Assembly (NCBI RefSeq): GCF_030384885.1 | Contig: NZ_CP128613.1 | Source of the DNA: Escherichia coli | Lineage (GTDB): Bacteria > Pseudomonadota > Gammaproteobacteria > Enterobacterales > Enterobacteriaceae | Length of the DNA: 64,000 bases | Direction: 5' to 3' (one strand) | Made by a program: the position numbers and the translations under genes | The notes under the pieces: model-generated | Databases searched by the model: none | The model's input: the letters and a program-made list of their open reading frames with translations, nothing else | Told to the model about the DNA's origin: nothing | Shown: one piece after another, positions 3,808 to 38,623 of the stretch | Layout: every line of letters begins with the position of its first letter | Numbering within the stretch: the first letter of the stretch is position 1

Positions 3808-5067
3808 TTATCTTCCCAACCACGGCTGTGGATTGACCGCCTGACCCTGGCGGCGAATTTCGAAATAGAGTGAAGGCCGACCCTGACCGCCACTGCTGCC
3901 CACCAGTGCAATTGGCTGGCCCGCGCGAACCTGCGAACCAACGCTCACCAGTGCGCTCTGATTATAGCCGTAAAGACTCATGTCGCCTTTACCATGCTCA
4001 ACCACCACCACCAGACCGTAGCCTTGCAGCCAGTCAGCCAGAATCACCCGACCGTCGGCAATCGCTTTAACTTCAGTACCTTCAGAAGCACCAATCACCA
4101 TCCCTTTCCAGCGCAGCTCACCCTGTAGCTGTTCACCATAGCGATGCAGCGTCGGCCCGCGAACCGGCCAGAATGCCTGACCACGCGGCGCGCCCAGGCC
4201 ACCAGTTCGGGACATCAGCGATTTTTCGCTTTCGGTCGGTTTGTAGGTGGTGCCTTTGCGCGTCGCTTCTTTCTGACGGTCGCGAACCGCCTGGGCTTCG
4301 CGCGCCTCACGTTCAGCACGCGCTTTCGCTGCCGCTTCCGCACGGGCAATGCTGTTACGCAGACGAGATTCGTTGGCGCGCAGCTCGCTCAACTGTTGTT
4401 GACCTTGCTGGATGGAAGACTCTAGCCCAGCCAGCGTCTTTTTACGCTCGTTCAGCGCCTGGGTCAGCTTCGCCTGTTGGGCGCGCTGCTCATATAACAG
4501 TGTTTGTTGCTCGCTCTGTTTCTCTTCCAGCTCGGCGCGTTGCATAGCGACTTCTTCACGCGTTTGTTTCAACTGAGCAATGGTTTCTTGTCGCGCCTGG
4601 TTGAGATAACCGAAATAAGCCTGTAAACGCTGACCACGCTGGCTTTCTTCACCGCTGAGAATGAGCTGAATACCGGTATGCTCGCCCTGACGAAACGCGG
4701 CATCCAGTTGCGCGGCGAGGCTGCGTTCCTGGGCGGCTTTTTGCTGCTCCAGTTTGGCAATCGATGCGTTCATCTCATCAATCTGTTTATTCAGTTGATT
4801 GAGTGTGTTTTGCGTTTCGCGCAGCTTGCGAGTGGCTTCAGAGATCGCTTCTTCCTGCTTTTTCAATTGTGCGAGCAGGCTTGCGCGTTGTTGTTGCTTT
4901 TGGCGTACCGCGCGCTCTTTCGCGGCGATATCGGCCTGAATAGATTTGAGTTGGTCGCGATCATCCGCGTGGGCGGAAAAGGCGCACAACAATACGCCAG
5001 CGCTAAGAACGCTGGCGTAGATGATAGGCCTGATTGCAAACCTGCGCGGTTTCACGGCCCGTGTCAT
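3808..5067 (-). CDS. envC: Murein hydrolase activator EnvC (coiled-coil plus LytM/M23 domain)
   Basis: Long Q/A/E-rich coiled-coil followed by a C-terminal M23-like domain; start placed at the internal ATG (MTRAVKPRRF..., 419 aa) rather than the ORF-track start. Confidence 0.9.
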   Translation of the reverse strand: MTRAVKPRRFAIRPIIYASVLSAGVLLCAFSAHADDRDQLKSIQADIAAKERAVRQKQQQRASLLAQLKKQEEAISEATRKLRETQNTLNQLNKQIDEMNASIAKLEQQKAAQERSLAAQLDAAFRQGEHTGIQLILSGEESQRGQRLQAYFGYLNQARQETIAQLKQTREEVAMQRAELEEKQSEQQTLLYEQRAQQAKLTQALNERKKTLAGLESSIQQGQQQLSELRANESRLRNSIARAEAAAKARAEREAREAQAVRDRQKEATRKGTTYKPTESEKSLMSRTGGLGAPRGQAFWPVRGPTLHRYGEQLQGELRWKGMVIGASEGTEVKAIADGRVILADWLQGYGLVVVVEHGKGDMSLYGYNQSALVSVGSQVRAGQPIALVGSSGGQGRPSLYFEIRRQGQAVNPQPWLGR

Positions 5068-27938: not shown

Positions 27939-28395
27939 GGGGGGCGGGGGAGATTATGGAACTTTGCTCCCTGCAAGGACTAATTATTTTTGCATATTAT
28001 TTCATCGGCTGTGATGATTTTTCGTTAATATCCATTATGTTAAGAAGTTCGGGATGAGTGTGAACTCATTGGATTTTTTATCCGTCTTGATCTGCCGAAG
28101 GATCAGACTATACATTGTCGAGATCGCAATGATGATATGAGTTGTTCCTCTGCCACGACTCTAATCAAAAAAGAGCAGGAGTGCTTTTCCATCTATTGCG
28201 ATGATGGCTTTATTATCTGAAGGATGACAATCACATTTAAAAATATATAATTTATAGATCACAATATAGGTTCATGGAATATATGTATACAACTATTTTT
28301 CTCTTCACTTTTAATTATCGCATTCATTATAACACTAAGTTAAAAAAACTCCTGGAGAGTGAGTTATTAATATATTTTTAAATATAATTAAGTTA

Positions 28396-28917
28396 TTATT
28401 CATCGATGCATTTTATAGAATCATCAATGGCTACAATAGTACTATTAACTCTCCAATTTATATTTTTATTATCATTGCAAATATTAACTGAATCTATATC
28501 AATGATTTTTCTATTTTTATCTTTTATTTTATTTACAGTTTCAATGCAATCAGCGACAAGTTGGTGTGGATTTAGATTCTTCAGATATGGTCTTATGATC
28601 TTTCCCTTGCTTAATAAATAGCATGTATAGGATTCGGAAAGTCCAGCATCTATTTTGTACATCATTATTCTAGATAAGGATGTGAGAAATGCCTTGTTAT
28701 CATTAGCAGCCATATATGCCAGTCCGAGTTCAGCCTCTGCGGCTTTACATGAAAAATAGCTAAATGAACACGCTTTTCGTCCCTCTTGGGTACTGGCTGA
28801 TATTAGTGCCCATAATATTGCCTTGTCTGCCAAATCCAACTCTCTCTGAAATTGGTTTACAGTAACTGCATTCGCAGAAATAGAGAAAAAAAGCACAATT
28901 GTTAATAACCTTGCCAT
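28396..28917 (-). CDS. Secreted or periplasmic protein; candidate immunity protein for the orphan Rhs C-terminal toxin
   Basis: 173 aa with cleavable signal peptide (MARLLTIVLFFSISANA); its start codon lies 4 nt after the stop of the orphan rhs-CT ORF, same strand. Confidence 0.45.
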   Translation of the reverse strand: MARLLTIVLFFSISANAVTVNQFQRELDLADKAILWALISASTQEGRKACSFSYFSCKAAEAELGLAYMAANDNKAFLTSLSRIMMYKIDAGLSESYTCYLLSKGKIIRPYLKNLNPHQLVADCIETVNKIKDKNRKIIDIDSVNICNDNKNINWRVNSTIVAIDDSIKCIDE

Positions 28918-28921
28918 ATTT

Positions 28922-30334
28922 CTAGTCCGTCACTGTTAATGTGCTATCTGGCTCTGAAAATATTAGCCCATTTAATTTTTGCATGTCATTAGATGAACCA
29001 GTTATACAACCCTCGGAACAGAATCGAGGTCCTAAAGATGGACCAAAAGCGTTTAAACAACTATGTGTTAAAAATCCATCACGATTATACGTTTCTGTAT
29101 TTGCTGACGGTACTAAACGTATACCATTAGGTTTTCTATTAGTTGCTCCAGGACCATTAACATTCCAGGTCCATACCCCTTGAGGTATTGGGCCTCTATT
29201 TTGTAAGTGTGTACAACCAGGATTATTTTTACATTGCATATTATTACCATTATTACCAGAGGCGACTGAAATAGTAAGCACACCATAAGAATTATCATCA
29301 CTTGGCGTATCTGAAACGCATGAAAGCATACCTAAAGTTATGCTGTATAAACAGGTCGCTAATCCCAACGGGTCAATATCAGTTATCGGATTCAACGGAT
29401 ACTGATAAAAATTCCATCCCCCCTTCAGCCCAATCGGATCCTGAGTGATATACCGCCCCTGCAGCGGGTCATAATAGCGGTGGCGGTTGTAATACAGGCC
29501 GGACTCCTCATCATACTGCTGACCCGGCAGGCGGATGAGCTGCTGCAGCTGGTGCGGGTTCTCTTCATTCAGCAGGTTGCCCCATTCATCATATTCTGCG
29601 TACCACGCTGTTGCCCCTTCCGTGCTGACAAGCGCCAGCGGCAGGCCGCGATGGTCGCAGTGGTACAGGTGGATTTTTCGCGCCGGCGTGTACACCGGGT
29701 CCATCTGGTTTTGCATCTGCTCCACCGTCAGGCCGCACGATGCCAGCCAGCGGCGGCTTTCCTCACTCACCCGGTCAGCCAGGATTTCACTTTCCAGCCG
29801 GTCGAGCATCTGCACCAGCACCGGCGGGAACACCACATGGCCTCCGTCTTCGCCGCCGGACTGCTGAAGGGCATCCGCCAGGCTGCGGCGCTGCGTTTTC
29901 GCCAGCTCACCGGTGGCGGTTTCGACCCTGATGAGTGGCGTGAAACTTCCCGGCAGGTATACCGTCTGGATGCGGGTTCTGTCGTTCTGTATCGTGGTCA
30001 GCCGGTCGCCATCCCAGCCGTACCAGGTCACTTCCGGTTTCCTTGACAGCGACATCCAGCCCGTCAGGTCCCGTTCACGCCGCCACACCCGTTTTGCCAC
30101 CCTGCGGCCCAGCGGGTCGTAAAGATAGCGACTTTCGACCAGCGGCTCTGCATATTGTGTCCGCGTGTAGTGCACCAGCCGGTGCCGGCTGTCGTAATGG
30201 TACCGGTGAGTCCGCTCATCATCCGTGCGGATAACCCCTTCCGGGATGAGGTCGGTTTTCTCCGTCAGCCTGCCGTGACGGTCATACCGGTAAAGATAGT
30301 GCGCGTCACGGGCGATACGGTTATCCGGCCACAT
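28922..30334 (-). CDS. Orphan rhs 3' fragment: distal Rhs core followed by an alternative C-terminal toxin domain
   Basis: 470 aa; the first ~325 aa are nearly identical to the distal core of the rhs gene at 30774-32915 up to the DPxGL boundary ([30 protein letters not shown]); the remaining ~145 aa are unrelated to the main gene. Confidence 0.75.
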
Positions 30335-30410
30335 GCTGAGGGTGCTGTCCGGGTGCAGCTCCGGGTCGGGCAGGCGGTTACCTGCCGGGTCTGTTGCATA
30401 CGGGATATCA
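29386..30410. repeat. Direct repeat copy A (~1.0 kb) of the rhs distal core
   Basis: Identical spurious plus-strand ORFs in the track at 29480 and 31347 (also 29535/31402, 29740/31607, 29913/31780, 30043/31910) give a constant 1867-bp offset; homology ends where the DPxGL-encoding sequence ends. Confidence 0.85.
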
Positions 30411-30447
30411 ATGCCCAGGTTACATATAATAATAAGAGCAATTAACT

Positions 30448-30774
30448 TTATTTATTTATAATGCGCTTACTTAATACAAACCATTGAATATACCCTCCTG
30501 ACAGAAAATAAAGCCATATTATTATCGCCATAATATACTTGCTATCAATTCTTACGCCAATAATGTCTGAAATACTCCCTATAAATATTAGAGCAATAAA
30601 GAATACTATGCCTGTTGGAAAACATATTACCATCATTCCATAAGACATGAGACTAATTAACTCGCTCACATCACGAGTGGAGTCTAATAGTGAAAGTCTA
30701 TGCATGGAAAAGAATAGCATTAAAAGTGATAACGCCAGCCATATAGCTCTGAATGAAAAAATAATATATTTCAT
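30448..30774 (-). CDS. Small three-helix membrane protein; candidate immunity protein for the main Rhs C-terminal toxin
   Basis: 108 aa, three hydrophobic segments; start codon overlaps the rhs stop by 1 nt (TAATG), same strand. Confidence 0.45.
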
Positions 30775-32915
30775 TACATCACTCCGGTGAATACAAATCT
30801 AATAAAACGTCCAATGTTATTTCCGGAGCACTTCATCTTACATGTTTCTAAAGAATCATTAGACCAGTCTTGGCAGTTTTTAAATAGCCCTAAATTTATA
30901 GGTGTGAATATATCAGGCAATACAGAATAACGCGGCCTTACCTCTTTAAATTTCCCTTTTAAACAGTTCTCCACACAACTATTATCGGTTTCAACGAGGT
31001 CACAACGGCCAGCAGCTTCTTTTGTATCATTACTTGCTTTACCTGGCCCCCATAGACCATCTCCTTTTGATTCTCCCCGTTGGTCTTGGCCACCACAAGT
31101 ATAGTCCCCTTTACCATCTGGGACACAAAGATATTGATGATAGAACGGATTCCCCCATATATCTGGACCGCTTCTTTCACCAGTTCCGCCCATTGAATGC
31201 AGTGGCTTAATGCATTTTAGTGTTTCTAATCCTAATGGATCTATATTTGAGATCGGATTCAACGGATACTGATAAAAATTCCATCCCCCCTTCAGCCCAA
31301 TCGGATCCTGAGTGATATACCGCCCCTGCAGCGGGTCATAATAGCGGTGGCGGTTGTAATACAGGCCGGACTCCTCATCATACTGCTGACCCGGCAGGCG
31401 GATGAGCTGCTGCAGCTGGTGCGGGTTCTCTTCATTCAGCAGGTTGCCCCATTCATCATATTCTGCGTACCACGCTGTTGCCCCTTCCGTGCTGACAAGC
31501 GCCAGCGGCAGGCCGCGATGGTCGCAGTGGTACAGGTGGATTTTTCGCGCCGGCGTGTACACCGGGTCCATCTGGTTTTGCATCTGCTCCACCGTCAGGC
31601 CGCACGATGCCAGCCAGCGGCGGCTTTCCTCACTCACCCGGTCAGCCAGGATTTCACTTTCCAGCCGGTCGAGCATCTGCACCAGCACCGGCGGGAACAC
31701 CACATGGCCTCCGTCTTCGCCGCCGGACTGCTGAAGGGCATCCGCCAGGCTGCGGCGCTGCGTTTTCGCCAGCTCACCGGTGGCGGTTTCGACCCTGATG
31801 AGTGGCGTGAAACTTCCCGGCAGGTATACCGTCTGGATGCGGGTTCTGTCGTTCTGTATCGTGGTCAGCCGGTCGCCATCCCAGCCGTACCAGGTCACTT
31901 CCGGTTTCCTTGACAGCGACATCCAGCCCGTCAGGTCCCGTTCACGCCGCCACACCCGTTTTGCCACCCTGCGGCCCAGCGGGTCGTAAAGATAGCGACT
32001 TTCGACCAGCGGCTCTGCATATTGTGTCCGCGTGTAGTGCACCAGCCGGTGCCGGCTGTCGTAATGGTACCGGTGAGTCCGCTCATCATCCGTGCGGATA
32101 ACCCCTTCCGGGATGAGGTCGGTTTTCTCCGTCAGCCTGCCGTGACGGTCATACCGGTAAAGATAGTGCGCGTCACGTGTTATACGGTTATCCGGCCACA
32201 TGCTGAGGGTGCTGTCCGGGTGCAGCTCCGGGTCAGGCAGGCGGTTACCTGCCGGGTCCGTGGCATACGGGATGCGGATATCCAGATTTGAGGTGGTGGT
32301 GTGGACGCCGGTCAGCCTGCCGGTGGTGCTGTAGCTGTAACTCCGGGTCTGGCGCGGGCTGCTGATGCGGATGAGTTCGCCGTTGTCGTTCCAGGTGTAA
32401 TCGCGGTCATACTGCAGGCTGTTCAGGTGCTGGCTCTGTAACTGCCCGGCAGGGGTATAAGCGGTGGTGAGTTCATAACGGCCGAAGCTGCGCAGCGTTT
32501 CCCGGTGCAGGCGGTCGCGGGTGAAATCCACCAGCGGTGTGTCGCCGAGTTTCATCCCTGCCAGGTAACCACTGCCATAAGTCAGCCATTCCACGGCGGG
32601 CAGGCTGTCCGGTATACAGCGGTTCGCCAGCCCCTGCGCGTTGTACGCATGTCTGGTTTCATGCTGCCAGAGCAGTTCATTCGTCTGCGGGTGATGCACC
32701 GTCTGGCGCTCACCGGTCAGGGCAAGGTCGGTTTCGCCGGGAAGGACCTTTGCACCGAGCAACGGATTGACCGGATGACCGGACGTCACCCCGCCGGGGC
32801 ACACCGAACAGGCCACGCTGGTGGGGGCACCAATACGTACCCCGGCTGAACCCTGAACAATGCTACCGCCATACTGCGTCATGTCGCCCTGACGCGCCGC
32901 CGGTTTTCCGCTCAT
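30774..32915 (-). CDS. Rhs-family polymorphic toxin, short form: PAAR-type N-terminus, distal YD-repeat core, DPxGL boundary, cysteine-rich C-terminal domain
   Basis: 713 aa; [22 protein letters not shown]... (literal PAAR motif); YD repeats ([46 protein letters not shown]); conserved core end PxxxxDPxGL; AAGGA Shine-Dalgarno before the ATG at 32915. Confidence 0.8.
31253..32277. repeat. Direct repeat copy B (~1.0 kb) of the rhs distal core
   Basis: Partner of 29386-30410; see that entry. Confidence 0.85.
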
Positions 32916-33143
32916 CTGCTCATCCTTGTTTTATCGGGTTATTTGTCTGCTGACAGGCGAAACCCTACAGATTTATAAGAAAGCCTTAAGTGAGATATCT
33001 GTCAGATAAGAACAATTAGGAAAATATTTATATCACCATGATAAATATGTGATTTATTGGGAGGTAACAAACCATCAACATTTTCTGCCCTTTTTCCCAT
33101 CACCAGGCCATACTGATATTTTTCCTCGCACAAAGGACTCGGC

Positions 33144-33849: not shown

Positions 33850-35241
33850 ATGACAACCGAAACGCGTTCCCTCTATAGTCAACTTCCGGCTATTGATCGC
33901 TTATTGCGCGATAGCTCTTTCCTTTCTTTGCGTGATACCTATGGTCACACCCGCGTGGTGGAGTTGCTGCGTCAGATGCTTGACGAAGCGCGAGAAGTGA
34001 TTCGTGACAACCAGACGCTGCCCGCATGGTGTGAAAACTGGGCGCAAGAAGTCGATGCCCGGCTGACGAAGGAGGCGCAGAGCGCGCTGCGTCCGGTGAT
34101 CAACCTGACGGGAACCGTGCTGCATACCAATCTTGGGCGAGCTTTACAGGCAGAAGCCGCGGTGGAAGCCGTTGCGCAGGCTATGCGTTCGCCAGTGACC
34201 CTCGAGTACGATCTGGACGACGCCGGACGCGGACATCGCGATCGGGCGCTGGCACAGCTGCTGTGCCGCATTACGGGGGCGGAAGATGCCTGTATCGTTA
34301 ATAACAATGCGGCGGCGGTATTGTTGATGTTGGCGGCCACTGCCAGTGGGAAAGAGGTGGTGGTATCTCGCGGCGAACTGGTGGAGATTGGCGGCGCGTT
34401 TCGTATTCCTGATGTCATGCGTCAGGCAGGCTGCACCCTACACGAAGTGGGGACCACCAATCGCACGCACGCTAATGATTATCGCCAGGCGGTGAATGAA
34501 AATACCGCTCTGTTGATGAAAGTACATACCAGTAACTACAGCATTCAGGGGTTCACCAAAGCGATAGATGAAGCTGAACTGGTGGCGCTCGGCAAAGAGC
34601 TGGATGTTCCAGTGGTGACGGATTTAGGCAGTGGCTCGCTAGTCGATCTTAGCCAGTACGGTTTGCCGAAAGAGCCAATGCCGCAGGAGTTGATTGCGGC
34701 GGGCGTCAGTCTGGTGAGCTTCTCCGGCGACAAGCTGTTAGGCGGGCCGCAGGCAGGAATTATTGTTGGTAAAAAAGAGATGATCGCCCGCCTGCAAAGC
34801 CATCCACTGAAGCGTGCATTACGCGCGGATAAAATGACCCTCGCGGCGCTGGAAGCCACGTTGCGTCTTTATTTACACCCTGAGGCGCTGAGTGAAAAAT
34901 TACCGACCCTGCGTCTGCTTACCCGCAGCGCAGAGGTCATTCAAATCCAGGCACAACGTTTACAGGCCCCCCTTGCCGCACATTACGGCGCGGAGTTCGC
35001 GGTACAGGTTATGCCATGTCTTTCGCAGATTGGCAGTGGTTCGCTGCCGGTTGATCGCCTGCCGAGCGCGGCATTAACGTTTACACCCCATGATGGACGC
35101 GGTAGCCACCTTGAGTCATTAGCCGCCCGCTGGCGTGAATTGCCAGTGCCGGTGATTGGTCGTATTTATGACGGACGATTGTGGCTGGATTTACGCTGCC
35201 TTGAAGATGAGCAACGGTTTTTGGAGATGTTGTTGAAATGA
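33850..35241 (+). CDS. selA: L-seryl-tRNA(Sec) selenium transferase
   Basis: 463 aa; recognised as SelA; overlaps the selB start. Confidence 0.95.
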
Positions 35242-37082
35242 TTATTGCGACTGCCGGACACGTTGACCACGGCAAAACAACCTTATTGCAGGCGATTACT
35301 GGCGTAAATGCCGACCGTCTGCCGGAAGAAAAAAAGCGCGGTATGACCATCGATCTCGGCTATGCCTACTGGCCGCAGTCAGATGGTCGCGTGCCTGGTT
35401 TTATCGACGTTCCCGGCCATGAAAAATTTCTTTCCAACATGCTGGCGGGCGTCGGGGGAATCGATCACGCGCTGTTGGTGGTGGCGTGCGATGACGGCGT
35501 GATGGCACAGACTCGTGAGCATCTGGCGATTTTGCAGCTGACCGGTAACCCGATGCTGACAGTGGCGCTGACCAAAGCCGATCGCGTGGACGAAGCGCGT
35601 GTTGATGAGGTTGAACGCCAGGTAAAGGAGGTGCTGCGGGAATACGGTTTTGCTGAGGCAAAACTGTTTATCACCGCAGCAACCGAAGGCCGGGGAATTG
35701 ATGCCCTGCGCGAGCATCTGCTTCAGTTACCAGAACGTGAACACGCCAGCCAACATAGCTTCCGCCTCGCTATCGACCGTGCTTTTACCGTAAAAGGTGC
35801 CGGGCTGGTCGTCACCGGTACGGCGTTAAGTGGGGAAGTGAAGGTAGGCGATTCACTCTGGCTGACTGGTGTAAATAAACCGATGCGCGTGCGTGCGCTA
35901 CATGCGCAAAATCAGCCAACAGAAACTGCCCATGCCGGGCAGCGTATCGCGCTTAACATCGCGGGTGATGCGGAAAAAGAGCAGATTAACCGTGGCGACT
36001 GGCTGCTTGCCGATGCGCCGCCGGAGCCGTTCACACGGGTGATTGTCGAGCTTCAAACCCATACACCGCTGACCCAGTGGCAGCCGCTGCATATTCACCA
36101 CGCCGCCAGCCACGTCACGGGACGCGTTTCGCTGCTGGAAGATAACCTTGCCGAGTTGGTGTTCGACACGCCGCTGTGGCTGGCAGATAACGATCGCTTA
36201 GTGCTACGCGATATCTCGGCCCGCAACACGCTGGCGGGGGCGCGCGTGGTGATGCTTAACCCGCCGCGTCGCGGTAAACGTAAGCCGGAATATCTGCAAT
36301 GGCTGGCGTCTCTTGCACAGGCGCAGAGCGATGCCGATGCGTTAGCTATTCATCTGGAACGCGGAGCGGTTAACCTTGCTGATTTCGCCTGGGCGCGCCA
36401 GCTCAACGGCGAAGGGATGCGTGAACTGCTGCAGCAACCGGGCTATATTCAGGCCGGTTATAGCTTGTTGAATGCGCCGGTTGCCGCTCGTTGGCAGCGT
36501 AAAATTCTCGATACCCTGGCGACTTATCATGAGCAGCATCGCGATGAACCAGGTCCTGGGCGCGAGCGTCTGCGGCGCATGGCGTTGCCAATGGAAGATG
36601 AAGCGCTGGTGCTGTTGCTGATTGAAAAGATGCGCGAAAGCGGCGACATCCTCAGTCATCACGGTTGGCTGCATCTGCCGGATCATAAAGCGGGATTCAG
36701 CGAAGAGCAGCAGGCTATCTGGCAAAAAGCGGAGCCGCTGTTTGGTGACGAGCCGTGGTGGGTGCGTGACCTGGCAAAAGAGACGGGAACCGACGAGCAG
36801 GCAATGCGTTTGACGCTACGCCAGGCGGCCCAACAGGGGATAATTACCGCGATCGTTAAAGATCGTTATTACCGTAACGATCGGATTGTCGAGTTTGCCA
36901 ATATGATCCGCGATCTCGATCAGGAATGTGGTTCAACCTGCGCGGCGGATTTCCGCGATCGCTTAGGTGTAGGCCGAAAGCTGGCAATTCAAATTCTGGA
37001 ATATTTTGACCGTATTGGCTTTACGCGTCGCCGTGGAAATGATCATTTATTGCGCGACGCATTATTATTTCCCGAAAAATAA
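35238..37082 (+). CDS. selB: Selenocysteine-specific translation elongation factor
   Basis: 614 aa; GTPase P-loop [11 protein letters not shown] at the N-terminus; winged-helix C-terminal extension. Confidence 0.95.
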
Positions 37083-37271
37083 GGGAACGATTAATTCATA
37101 ATAAATATGAATTAATACAAAGTTCTTATTAATGTTAAGGAAGCACGTTATTTGATGAATGTAACGTGCTTTTTATTAAAAATATTTTAATAAACGGTAA
37201 TGTTGATCATATTTTCAAATGAAAATCCTCAGTAAGCTGCCCGCCCTTTTTTACACTTTCAGGAGTGTGTT

Positions 37272-38423
37272 ATGGCAGCTTCAACCTTTTTTATTCCTTC
37301 CGTGAATGTTATTGGTGCTGATTCATTGAATGATGCAATGAATATGATGGCAGATTATGGATTTACCCGTACCTTAATTGTCACCGACAATATGTTAACG
37401 AAATTGGGTATGGCGGGTGATGTGCAAAAAGCACTGGAAGAACGCAATATTTTTAGCGTTATTTATGATGGCACCCAACCTAACCCCACCACGGAAAACG
37501 TCGCTGCAGGTTTGAAATTACTTAAAGAAAATAATTGCGATAGCGTAATCTCCCTGGGCGGTGGTTCTCCGCACGACTGTGCAAAAGGTATTGCGCTGGT
37601 TGCAGCCAACGGCGGTGACATCCGCGATTATGAAGGCGTTGACCGCTCTGCAAAACCGCAGTTGCCGATGATCGCCATCAACACCACGGCGGGTACGGCA
37701 TCAGAAATGACCCGTTTTTGCATCATCACCGATGAAGCACGTCACATCAAAATGGCGATTGTGGATAAGCACGTCACTCCGCTGCTTTCTGTCAATGACT
37801 CCTCGCTGATGATCGGTATGCCGAAGTCACTGACCGCTGCAACGGGTATGGATGCCTTAACGCACGCTATCGAAGCGTATGTGTCTATTGCCGCCACGCC
37901 GATCACCGACGCTTGCGCACTGAAAGCGGTGACTATGATTGCTGAAAACCTGCCCTTAGCCGTTGAAGATGGCAGCAATGAGAAAGCGCGCGAAGCAATG
38001 GCTTACGCTCAGTTCCTCGCGGGTATGGCGTTCAACAATGCGTCTCTGGGTTATGTTCATGCGATGGCGCACCAGCTGGGCGGTTTCTACAACCTGCCAC
38101 ACGGTGTATGTAATGCTGTTCTGCTGCCACACGTTCAGGTGTTCAACAGCAAAGTCGCTGCTGCACGTTTGCGTGACTGCGCTGCTGCGATGGGTGTTAA
38201 CGTGACAGGTAAAAACGATGCGGAAGGTGCAGAAGCCTGCATCAATGCCATCCGTGAACTGGCGAAGAAAGTGAATATCCCGGCAGGCTTGCGTGACCTG
38301 AACGTGAAAGAAGAAGATTTCGCGGTACTGGCGACCAATGCCCTGAAAGATGCCTGCGGCTTTACTAACCCGATTCAGGCAACTCACGAAGAAATTGTGG
38401 CGATTTATCGCGCGGCGATGTAA
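37272..38423 (+). CDS. yiaY: Iron-containing (group III) alcohol dehydrogenase
   Basis: 383 aa; Fe-ADH motifs (GGGSPHD, histidine-rich metal site). Confidence 0.9.
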
Positions 38424-38623
38424 TCATCATTCCCATAATGGCTGGCTAATTGTCAGCCATTTTTTCAACTCTCTCAAAATTTGCGATTTTTGAGAGAGTT
38501 TTAGTTATCTCTGTAATCCTTGCCCGTAAATTCGTGATAGCCGTCGTAAAGCTATCACCAGCTGGCGAAGATTTCGCCAGTCACGTCTACCCTTGTTATA
38601 CCTCACACCGCAAGGAGACGATC

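Follow-up and report, generated by a model that had tools for sequence, protein, structure and literature searches.

A conserved dyad between selB and yiaY as a candidate protein recognition site upstream of a cryptic Escherichia coli dehydrogenase gene

Dyad operators and distal counter-silencer sites are the described elements closest to the palindrome that lies between selB and yiaY of Escherichia coli. The SlyA sites 167–194 bp upstream of the fimB start site are distal counter-silencer sites of this kind. Like these, the yiaY dyad has two conserved half-sites at a fixed spacing around a free center, in intergenic DNA upstream of an H-NS-silenced gene with which it co-occurs; unlike them, it lies 5′ of the terminator of the preceding operon, occurs once per genome, has half-site centers 18 bp apart, and is degenerate in most E. 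coli. Sites of H-NS itself follow the motif tCGATAAATT (Lang et al. 2007, PMC2094087); the dyad resembles them in being AT-rich, in containing a TpA step, in lying within an H-NS-bound region, and in preceding a gene that behaves as if silenced, whereas strict two-fold symmetry and conservation of TTCA/TGAA belong to the dyad and not to H-NS sites. A further AT-rich palindrome, that of an H-NS antagonist, is the core site of the LysR-type protein LeuO, a 19-bp palindrome with two 7-bp half-sites 5 bp apart (PMC6698644). Finally, rho-independent terminators and 3′-UTR stabilizer hairpins are likewise hairpin-capable inverted repeats just past a stop codon, but the present element has one G-C pair in 11, no U-run, and a fold that is lost in most E. 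coli alleles.

The gene yiaY encodes a conserved but cryptic dehydrogenase, and its regulation is essentially undescribed. Comparison of orthologous spacers shows the dyad to be genuine and conserved, a cis element in the control region of yiaY that had gone unannotated and that belongs to a known general kind. Apart from its two 9-bp half-sites separated by 9 bp and the block GATCATATTTT, no sequence upstream of yiaY is under strong constraint, and both offer handles on the control of the gene.

The palindrome and the selB–yiaY spacer

The initial annotation of the 64-kb stretch of E. coli DNA analyzed here (64,000 nt, hereafter the window) drew attention to a perfect inverted repeat after selB, and TTAATTCATA-ATAAA-TATGAATTAA is indeed read at 37091–37115. 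This 10-bp repeat begins at the 9th base past the selB stop codon. The repeat proved to be one pair longer on each side, with arms at 37090–37100 and 37106–37116 and a spacer of 5 nt; in this form it starts 8 nt past the selB stop, its end lies 156 bp from the yiaY ATG at 37272, and its center is 169 bp 5′ of that ATG and 5′ of the selAB terminator. The features of the spacer and its flanking genes are as follows (those without a strand are symmetric or unstranded).

35238–37082, + strand: selB coding sequence, with the stop codon TAA at 37080–37082 (ORF list; RefSeq annotation of an identical record)
37090–37116: perfect palindrome ATTAATTCATA-ATAAA-TATGAATTAAT (11+5+11; inverted-repeat search, P = 0.002 against spacer shuffles)
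37090–37098: left conserved half-site ATTAATTCA (both arms jointly 18/18 against Citrobacter youngae and 17/18 against Pseudocitrobacter)
37099–37107: variable 9-bp center, TAATAAATA in the window allele (3/9 against Citrobacter and 3/9 against Pseudocitrobacter)
37108–37116: right conserved half-site TGAATTAAT (cross-genus alignment)
37117–37122: conserved 3′ flank ACAAA(G/A) (5–6 of 6 positions identical between genera)
37141–37178, + strand: selAB intrinsic terminator, stem AAGCACGTTA / TAACGTGCTT with an 11-nt loop, then TTTTTATT (inverted repeat, fold)
37172–37194: second perfect palindrome TTTATTAAAA-ATA-TTTTAATAAA, overlapping the terminator T-run and specific to the window allele
37205–37215, + strand: GATCATATTTT block (11/11 identical between genera), the most widely conserved element upstream of yiaY
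37232–37240, + strand: GTAAGCTGC (GTATGCTGC in Citrobacter), a conserved −10-like block (alignment) of a putative promoter
37272–38423, + strand: yiaY coding sequence, Fe-type alcohol / L-threonine dehydrogenase (ORF list; RefSeq annotation of an identical record)

The region 37000–37300 is 100% identical to E. coli 2013C-4282, in which the flanking genes are annotated as selB and yiaY (RefSeq); that record has no annotation under the palindrome. The GC content of the region is 29%, against 51% in the whole window. The 64-kb window contains eight perfect inverted repeats whose arms reach 10 bp or more and whose spacers do not exceed 10 bp, compared with 0–2 in 20 dinucleotide shuffles. When the 189-bp, 71%-AT spacer was shuffled 2000 times with its dinucleotides preserved, the P value was 0.002 for an arm of at least 11 bp and 0.0075 for at least 10 bp. 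Such a palindrome is improbable locally, and a handful are expected genome-wide. Perfection alone is nevertheless weak evidence, because the second perfect palindrome in the same spacer (37172–37194) is conserved in neither the K-12 nor the Citrobacter alleles and is probably fortuitous; the evidential weight rests on cross-species conservation rather than on perfection.

The palindrome had been described from the outset as too AT-rich for a typical intrinsic terminator, and this description holds: A+T makes up 93% of it, and because its stem has a single C-G pair in 11 and is followed on the 3′ side by ACAAAGTTCTTA rather than by a U-run, a terminator is ruled out. The true selAB terminator starts 25 bp 3′ of the palindrome. 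Its hairpin dominates the predicted fold of 37070–37185 (−29.8 kcal/mol, z = −6.1), and two compensatory pair changes distinguish its stem in the window allele from that in K-12; a loop longer than 8 nt kept it out of the results of a consensus terminator scan. As a lesson for annotation, a hairpin right after selB should not be equated with the terminator.

Farther downstream, the GATCATATTTT block occurs in nearly all yiaY loci, including those of Kluyvera and Enterobacter, and is missing where yiaY is absent; from this distribution it is likely to represent the core-promoter or an activator region of yiaY. The block includes a Dam site and is a poor match to the FNR consensus. A scan for sigma-70-like promoters over both strands of 36800–37500 called none, the good −10-like hexamers near the palindrome fall in its non-conserved center, and the yiaY promoters named so far, yiaYp4 and yiaYp6, are predictions only. 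Small ORFs were rejected as an explanation of the element. The sole candidate is a 28-aa ORF (37219–37305) without conservation, which overlaps the yiaY start in another frame and lacks its ATG in Citrobacter; a mini-ORF inside the right arm, ATG-AAT-TAA, is lost in K-12.

Conservation of the arms across species and within E. coli

In a SelB scan in which 80 species loci were compared, selB–yiaY synteny with a spacer of about 185–190 bp was found in Escherichia, Citrobacter, Kluyvera, Pseudocitrobacter, and a few others. The arms ATTAATTCA-N9-TGAATTAAT are kept in Escherichia, Citrobacter, and Pseudocitrobacter with a free center, and no indel alters their spacing in any of 18 orthologous sequences. 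Identity of E. coli with C. youngae is 18/18 in the arms, 3/9 in the center, 9/18 in the linker, and 10/27 in the DNA after the terminator; with Pseudocitrobacter, in which the terminator has been replaced (8/20), it is 17/18 in the arms and 3/9 in the center. The only other spacer block as conserved as the arms is GATCATATTTT. Because the arms are identical between genera beside a center and flanks that are nearly random, purifying selection must have acted on the arm sequence.

Meanwhile, the distribution of the element follows yiaY. In Escherichia, Citrobacter, and Pseudocitrobacter, the dyad is present wherever yiaY follows selB, or where only a truncated yiaY remnant does so (two loci). 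In about 45 species with selB but without yiaY, the best arm match was at most 12/18 and the GATC-containing block was missing; the element is therefore a part of yiaY rather than of the selAB mRNA. Furthermore, Kluyvera and some Enterobacter have yiaY and the GATC block but no dyad, so that the dyad is a clade-specific addition.

Within E. coli, the selB–yiaY locus was found in 5410 of 5426 complete genomes, in two haplotype classes. The window-type palindrome, called at ≥90% identity across a 43-bp probe, is present in about 1337 genomes (~25%). K-12, O157:H7, and EPEC E2348/69 carry the allele ATTAATTAA(G/T)TTTTAAAATAAATTAAT, in which the outer 7 bp of both arms survive but their C and G are gone, a loss found in ~75% of the genomes (ATTAATTAA...TAAATTAAT). 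Between the window and K-12 haplotypes, divergence is 5.6% in selB, 6.9% in yiaY, and 16.9% in the spacer. The spacer has thus diverged roughly at the pace of silent sites, which makes the features common to both alleles informative. Between the window and O157-type alleles, 6 of the 13 positions of 37097–37109 differ. Perfect 11-bp arms are a trait of the window allele only.

Two E. coli loci have an altered neighborhood. In EPEC E2348/69 (positions 1–2371 of the sequence compared), a Fic-family gene instead of aldB lies 3′ of yiaY, and the spacer holds the O157-type near-palindrome composed only of A and T. In E. coli 2017.15.02CC (positions 4084–4850), an IS1 follows directly after the selB stop, and the spacer, yiaY, and aldB through yiaL are deleted.

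Candidate binding proteins and the silencing of yiaY

Symmetric half-sites at a fixed spacing, arms that are conserved while the center and linker diverge, and co-occurrence with yiaY together read as the classic footprint of a two-fold-symmetric DNA-binding protein. The initial annotation had suggested an operator for a dimeric regulator of yiaY. The part of that suggestion concerning the site itself stands, with half-sites at fixed spacing, a free center, and an association with yiaY rather than selB; as to the regulator, no cognate protein was found among FNR, ArcA, Dan, LeuO, CaiF, and YiaU. The site also lies 5′ of the selAB terminator, is degenerate in ~75% of E. coli genomes, and is part of a region bound by H-NS in K-12.

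A genome search for the half-site, which had been proposed as a check, yielded no second copy in the window, in E. coli genomes, or in E. coli-like metagenome contigs among the matches listed. No arm motif with up to 3 mismatches was found elsewhere in the 64-kb window, and short-query BLAST against E. coli genomes gave a single copy, counted as “2 places” because the palindrome is read on either strand. With the exact 18-base motif (zero mismatches), metagenomes gave at least 120 matches; every E. coli- or Citrobacter-like contig among the matches listed was the selB–yiaY locus, and the others listed were mostly unrelated contigs of lower G+C (about 0.18–0.57). As a single copy per E. coli genome, the palindrome was rejected as a repeated or mobile element.

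No regulator gene adjoins yiaY, which is flanked by selB upstream and aldB downstream. To our knowledge, the consensus sequences of ArgR, NagC/Mlc, Fur, Lrp, and NsrR do not fit the palindrome in register or spacing. FNR was rejected since TTGAT-N4-ATCAA has no match in the palindrome, and ArcA since neither yiaY nor selB appears in the supplementary data of an ArcA ChIP study. The arms read ATTAATT, with A in place of the G of the Dan (TtdR) box GTTNATT, except in Citrobacter sp. R56; yiaY is not among the reported targets of YiaU, the neighboring LysR regulator; and the sites of CaiF, TTTCAATATTG-N13-CAATATTGAAA, are unrelated. When ChIP supplement tables were searched with the K-12 locus coordinates, entries were found only for H-NS and IHF ChIP-chip, and the IHF peak (3756423–3756791) lies inside selB and not at the palindrome, which removes IHF.

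LeuO was considered in most detail. In the window allele, a perfect 7-5-7 palindrome, ATTCATA-ATAAA-TATGAAT, spans the central 19 bp, and the sole 7-5-7 palindrome of the cas3–casA spacer, ATATTCA-N5-TGAATAT, has ATTCA/TGAAT in common with the dyad arms. However, the dyad is TTCA-N9-TGAA in the frame C-N11-G, the candidate cas site is TTCA-N5-TGAA in the frame T-N11-A, and the 7-5-7 core of the window allele is not conserved in K-12, Citrobacter, or other species. LeuO was therefore rejected on its wrong spacing despite the similar pentamers, and the article text of PMC6698644 does not name yiaY as a LeuO target. Separately, the exact right-arm 9-mer TGAATTAAT occurs in the H-NS/LeuO-controlled cas promoter region of K-12 (positions 700–770 of the cas3–casA sequence compared), which may be chance in AT-rich DNA.

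We lean, tentatively, toward the reading that the palindrome is a double-stranded DNA recognition site for a two-fold-symmetric, sequence-specific protein in the yiaY upstream control region, where it modulates H-NS silencing. The functional unit would consist of two 9-bp half-sites, ATTAATTCA and TGAATTAAT, with a strict 9 bp between them. The bound protein would act from about 130–170 bp upstream of the likely yiaY promoter, modulating H-NS silencing of this anaerobically inducible promoter either as a counter-silencer/activator or as an auxiliary repressor, and the location of the site inside the selAB transcription unit, between stop codon and terminator, would be incidental. The dyad symmetry is well above local chance and is not accounted for by RNA folding, both of which favor this reading, and counter-silencers such as SlyA provide a precedent for action at a similar distance. 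It is weakened by the distance of 18 bp between half-site centers, which is unusual for a simple helix-turn-helix dimer, and by the position of the site 5′ of a terminator and far from the putative promoter; in addition, the strain in which Ler regulates yiaY has a degenerate allele, the arm C and G are missing from ~75% of E. coli genomes, and Kluyvera and Enterobacter species with yiaY lack the arms.

A more specific proposal, which we consider rather unlikely, is that the arms are the operator of an unassigned regulator, for example some uncharacterized E. coli transcription factor. As a dedicated counter-silencer, this factor would turn on the cryptic yiaY(-aldB) alcohol/threonine dehydrogenase genes in one particular anaerobic or host-associated state. 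The operator would then also represent a natural regulatory polymorphism, with an intact form in roughly 25% of E. coli genomes and a decayed one in K-12-like strains, which would help explain the silence of yiaY in laboratory K-12. The coexistence of intact and decayed alleles within E. coli provides a natural test.

The main rival to a dedicated dimeric regulator is a nucleoid-protein site, a serious alternative because the region is H-NS-bound in K-12. The K-12 selB–yiaY spacer corresponds to NC_000913.3 3757828–3758016. We take the U00096.2 numbering to be 1977 bp lower here, which would place the spacer at 3755851–3756039. The H-NS ChIP-chip study used below is older than version 3 of the K-12 record, and its yqhC/yqhD coordinate fits version 2. 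In U00096.2 numbering, the spacer lies near the middle of an extended H-NS domain, at the kilobase scale of ChIP, and near the center of both ChIP-chip regions: 3755059–3756664 (aerobic) and 3755039–3757215 (anaerobic) (Myers et al. 2013). As to expression, yiaY is silent in K-12, and the study reporting this silence also found unexplained protein occupancy near the selB end; an oxygen-dependent change of yiaY (0.15) was seen only in a ΔhnsΔstpA strain (Myers et al. 2013). Anaerobic conditions induce yiaY in Shigella flexneri (log2 3.2) in an FNR-dependent manner, and in EPEC E2348/69, which carries the degenerate all-A/T O157-type allele, the H-NS antagonist Ler raises yiaY 5–9-fold.

The palindrome might instead bind H-NS-family proteins (H-NS/StpA) with high affinity and nucleate the filament that silences yiaY, with Ler displacing them, which we regard as possible though doubtful. 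Each arm contains an AATT/TpA-containing motif, the two ATTAAT cores are 21 bp (two helical turns) apart, GC falls to 29% here, and the K-12 and O157 alleles are pure A/T; moreover, yiaY is silent in K-12, oxygen-regulated only without H-NS/StpA, and raised by Ler in EPEC. The left arm with its flank, ACGATTAATT, matches the template tCGATAAATT at 8/10 positions in the window allele (7/10 in K-12 and Citrobacter) and has CGATTAAT in common with the footprinted cspA site CCGATTAATC. Against this reading, the motif is loose and frequent in random DNA (39 of 99 random regions of 500 bp have one), ChIP resolves to about a kilobase, and coating would be expected on any AT-rich DNA. Furthermore, the motif's CG varies, reading CA in Citrobacter and TG in K-12; the C/G that is kept, in TTCA/TGAA, falls outside the motif; and H-NS needs neither strict two-fold symmetry nor a fixed 9-bp spacing. 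Recognition of the dyad by a sequence-specific protein that assists or opposes H-NS is in our tentative judgment the better account of the constrained arms.

Neutral symmetry and RNA structure as less likely alternatives, and neighboring repeats

It is distinctly unlikely that the perfect palindrome lacks a function of its own, in the sense that an AT-rich quasi-palindrome was perfected by chance or by template-switch mutation (quasi-palindrome correction), with the arms conserved for another reason, or that its role is one of DNA structure through curvature or a cruciform. A non-conserved perfect palindrome in the same spacer gives this idea some footing, as does the center, where the 6 of 13 positions (37097–37109) that differ between the window and O157-type alleles compare with 17% spacer-wide (window versus K-12). 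Each Escherichia allele nonetheless remains nearly symmetric, with 11–12 of 13 pairs kept, which fits multi-base template-switch events, and the inner four pairs in Escherichia are complementary in 24 of 28 cells against 13.6 expected. This near-symmetry over 27 bp in Escherichia could come from selection for a hairpin or cruciform (the window-allele DNA hairpin is predicted at −7.4 kcal/mol) or equally from template-switch mutation, which would also account for the central differences. The excess, however, derives mostly from pairs shared by descent, and in other genera there is none (14/44 complementary against 13.4 expected). Arm identity of 18/18 across genera needs purifying selection on the arm sequence.

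The hairpin-forming capacity of the transcript was considered as well, with the palindrome as an RNA hairpin of the selAB 3′ UTR, for example one that blocks 3′ exonucleases or that signals processing or pausing. The palindrome lies between the selB stop and the terminator and is therefore transcribed with selAB, and the window-allele RNA folds at −8.3 kcal/mol (z = −7). The pair formed by columns 15 and 21 takes A-U, U-A, and G-C among 18 orthologous sequences, and covariation is weakly above background in a test inflated by relatedness (score 0.088 against 0.062 ± 0.010, reached by 5 of 500 shuffles). However, the stem is nearly pure A-U, the inner pairs are frequently disrupted, and the K-12 (−0.9 kcal/mol) and O157 (−2.5 kcal/mol) RNAs are no more stable than shuffled sequences, a contrast with the window allele that DNA folding parameters reproduce. 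The outer nine pairs are conserved in sequence without covariation and, since they almost never vary, are mute on RNA structure in either direction. With a stable fold not kept across alleles, weak covariation, no Rfam family at E ≤ 10 beyond noise, and no such element after selB in the about 45 species without yiaY, a structured RNA is highly improbable.

Other repeats and variable segments were observed around the locus. The selB 3′ end contains seven GATC sites in 110 bp (36851–36960) and an eighth at 37041; at this cluster, a 2025 study reported Dam-dependent occupancy by RNA polymerase and protein, with no known binder. The stretch 38438–38500 holds the yiaY terminator hairpin, ATGGCTGGC...GTCAGCCAT followed by T6, and directly 3′ of it, upstream of aldB, a palindrome with 13-bp arms, AACTCTCTCAAAA-N8-TTTTGAGAGAGTT. 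At 38501–38511, an additional 1.3 kb or so is present in several other E. coli contigs. A segment of about 5.2 kb (27940–33106) is missing from many E. coli metagenome contigs, in which 27939 is joined to 33107; it is a strain-variable insertion beside yibF, at the position of rhsA in K-12. Finally, at least ten contigs of one freshwater metagenome (Ga0105103, about 35% GC) contain the recurring sequence GATTAATTCATA-N5-TATGAATTAAT, usually with CCCG / CGGG-type flanks, and these represent a family of dispersed palindromic repeats that has no relation to the E. coli locus.
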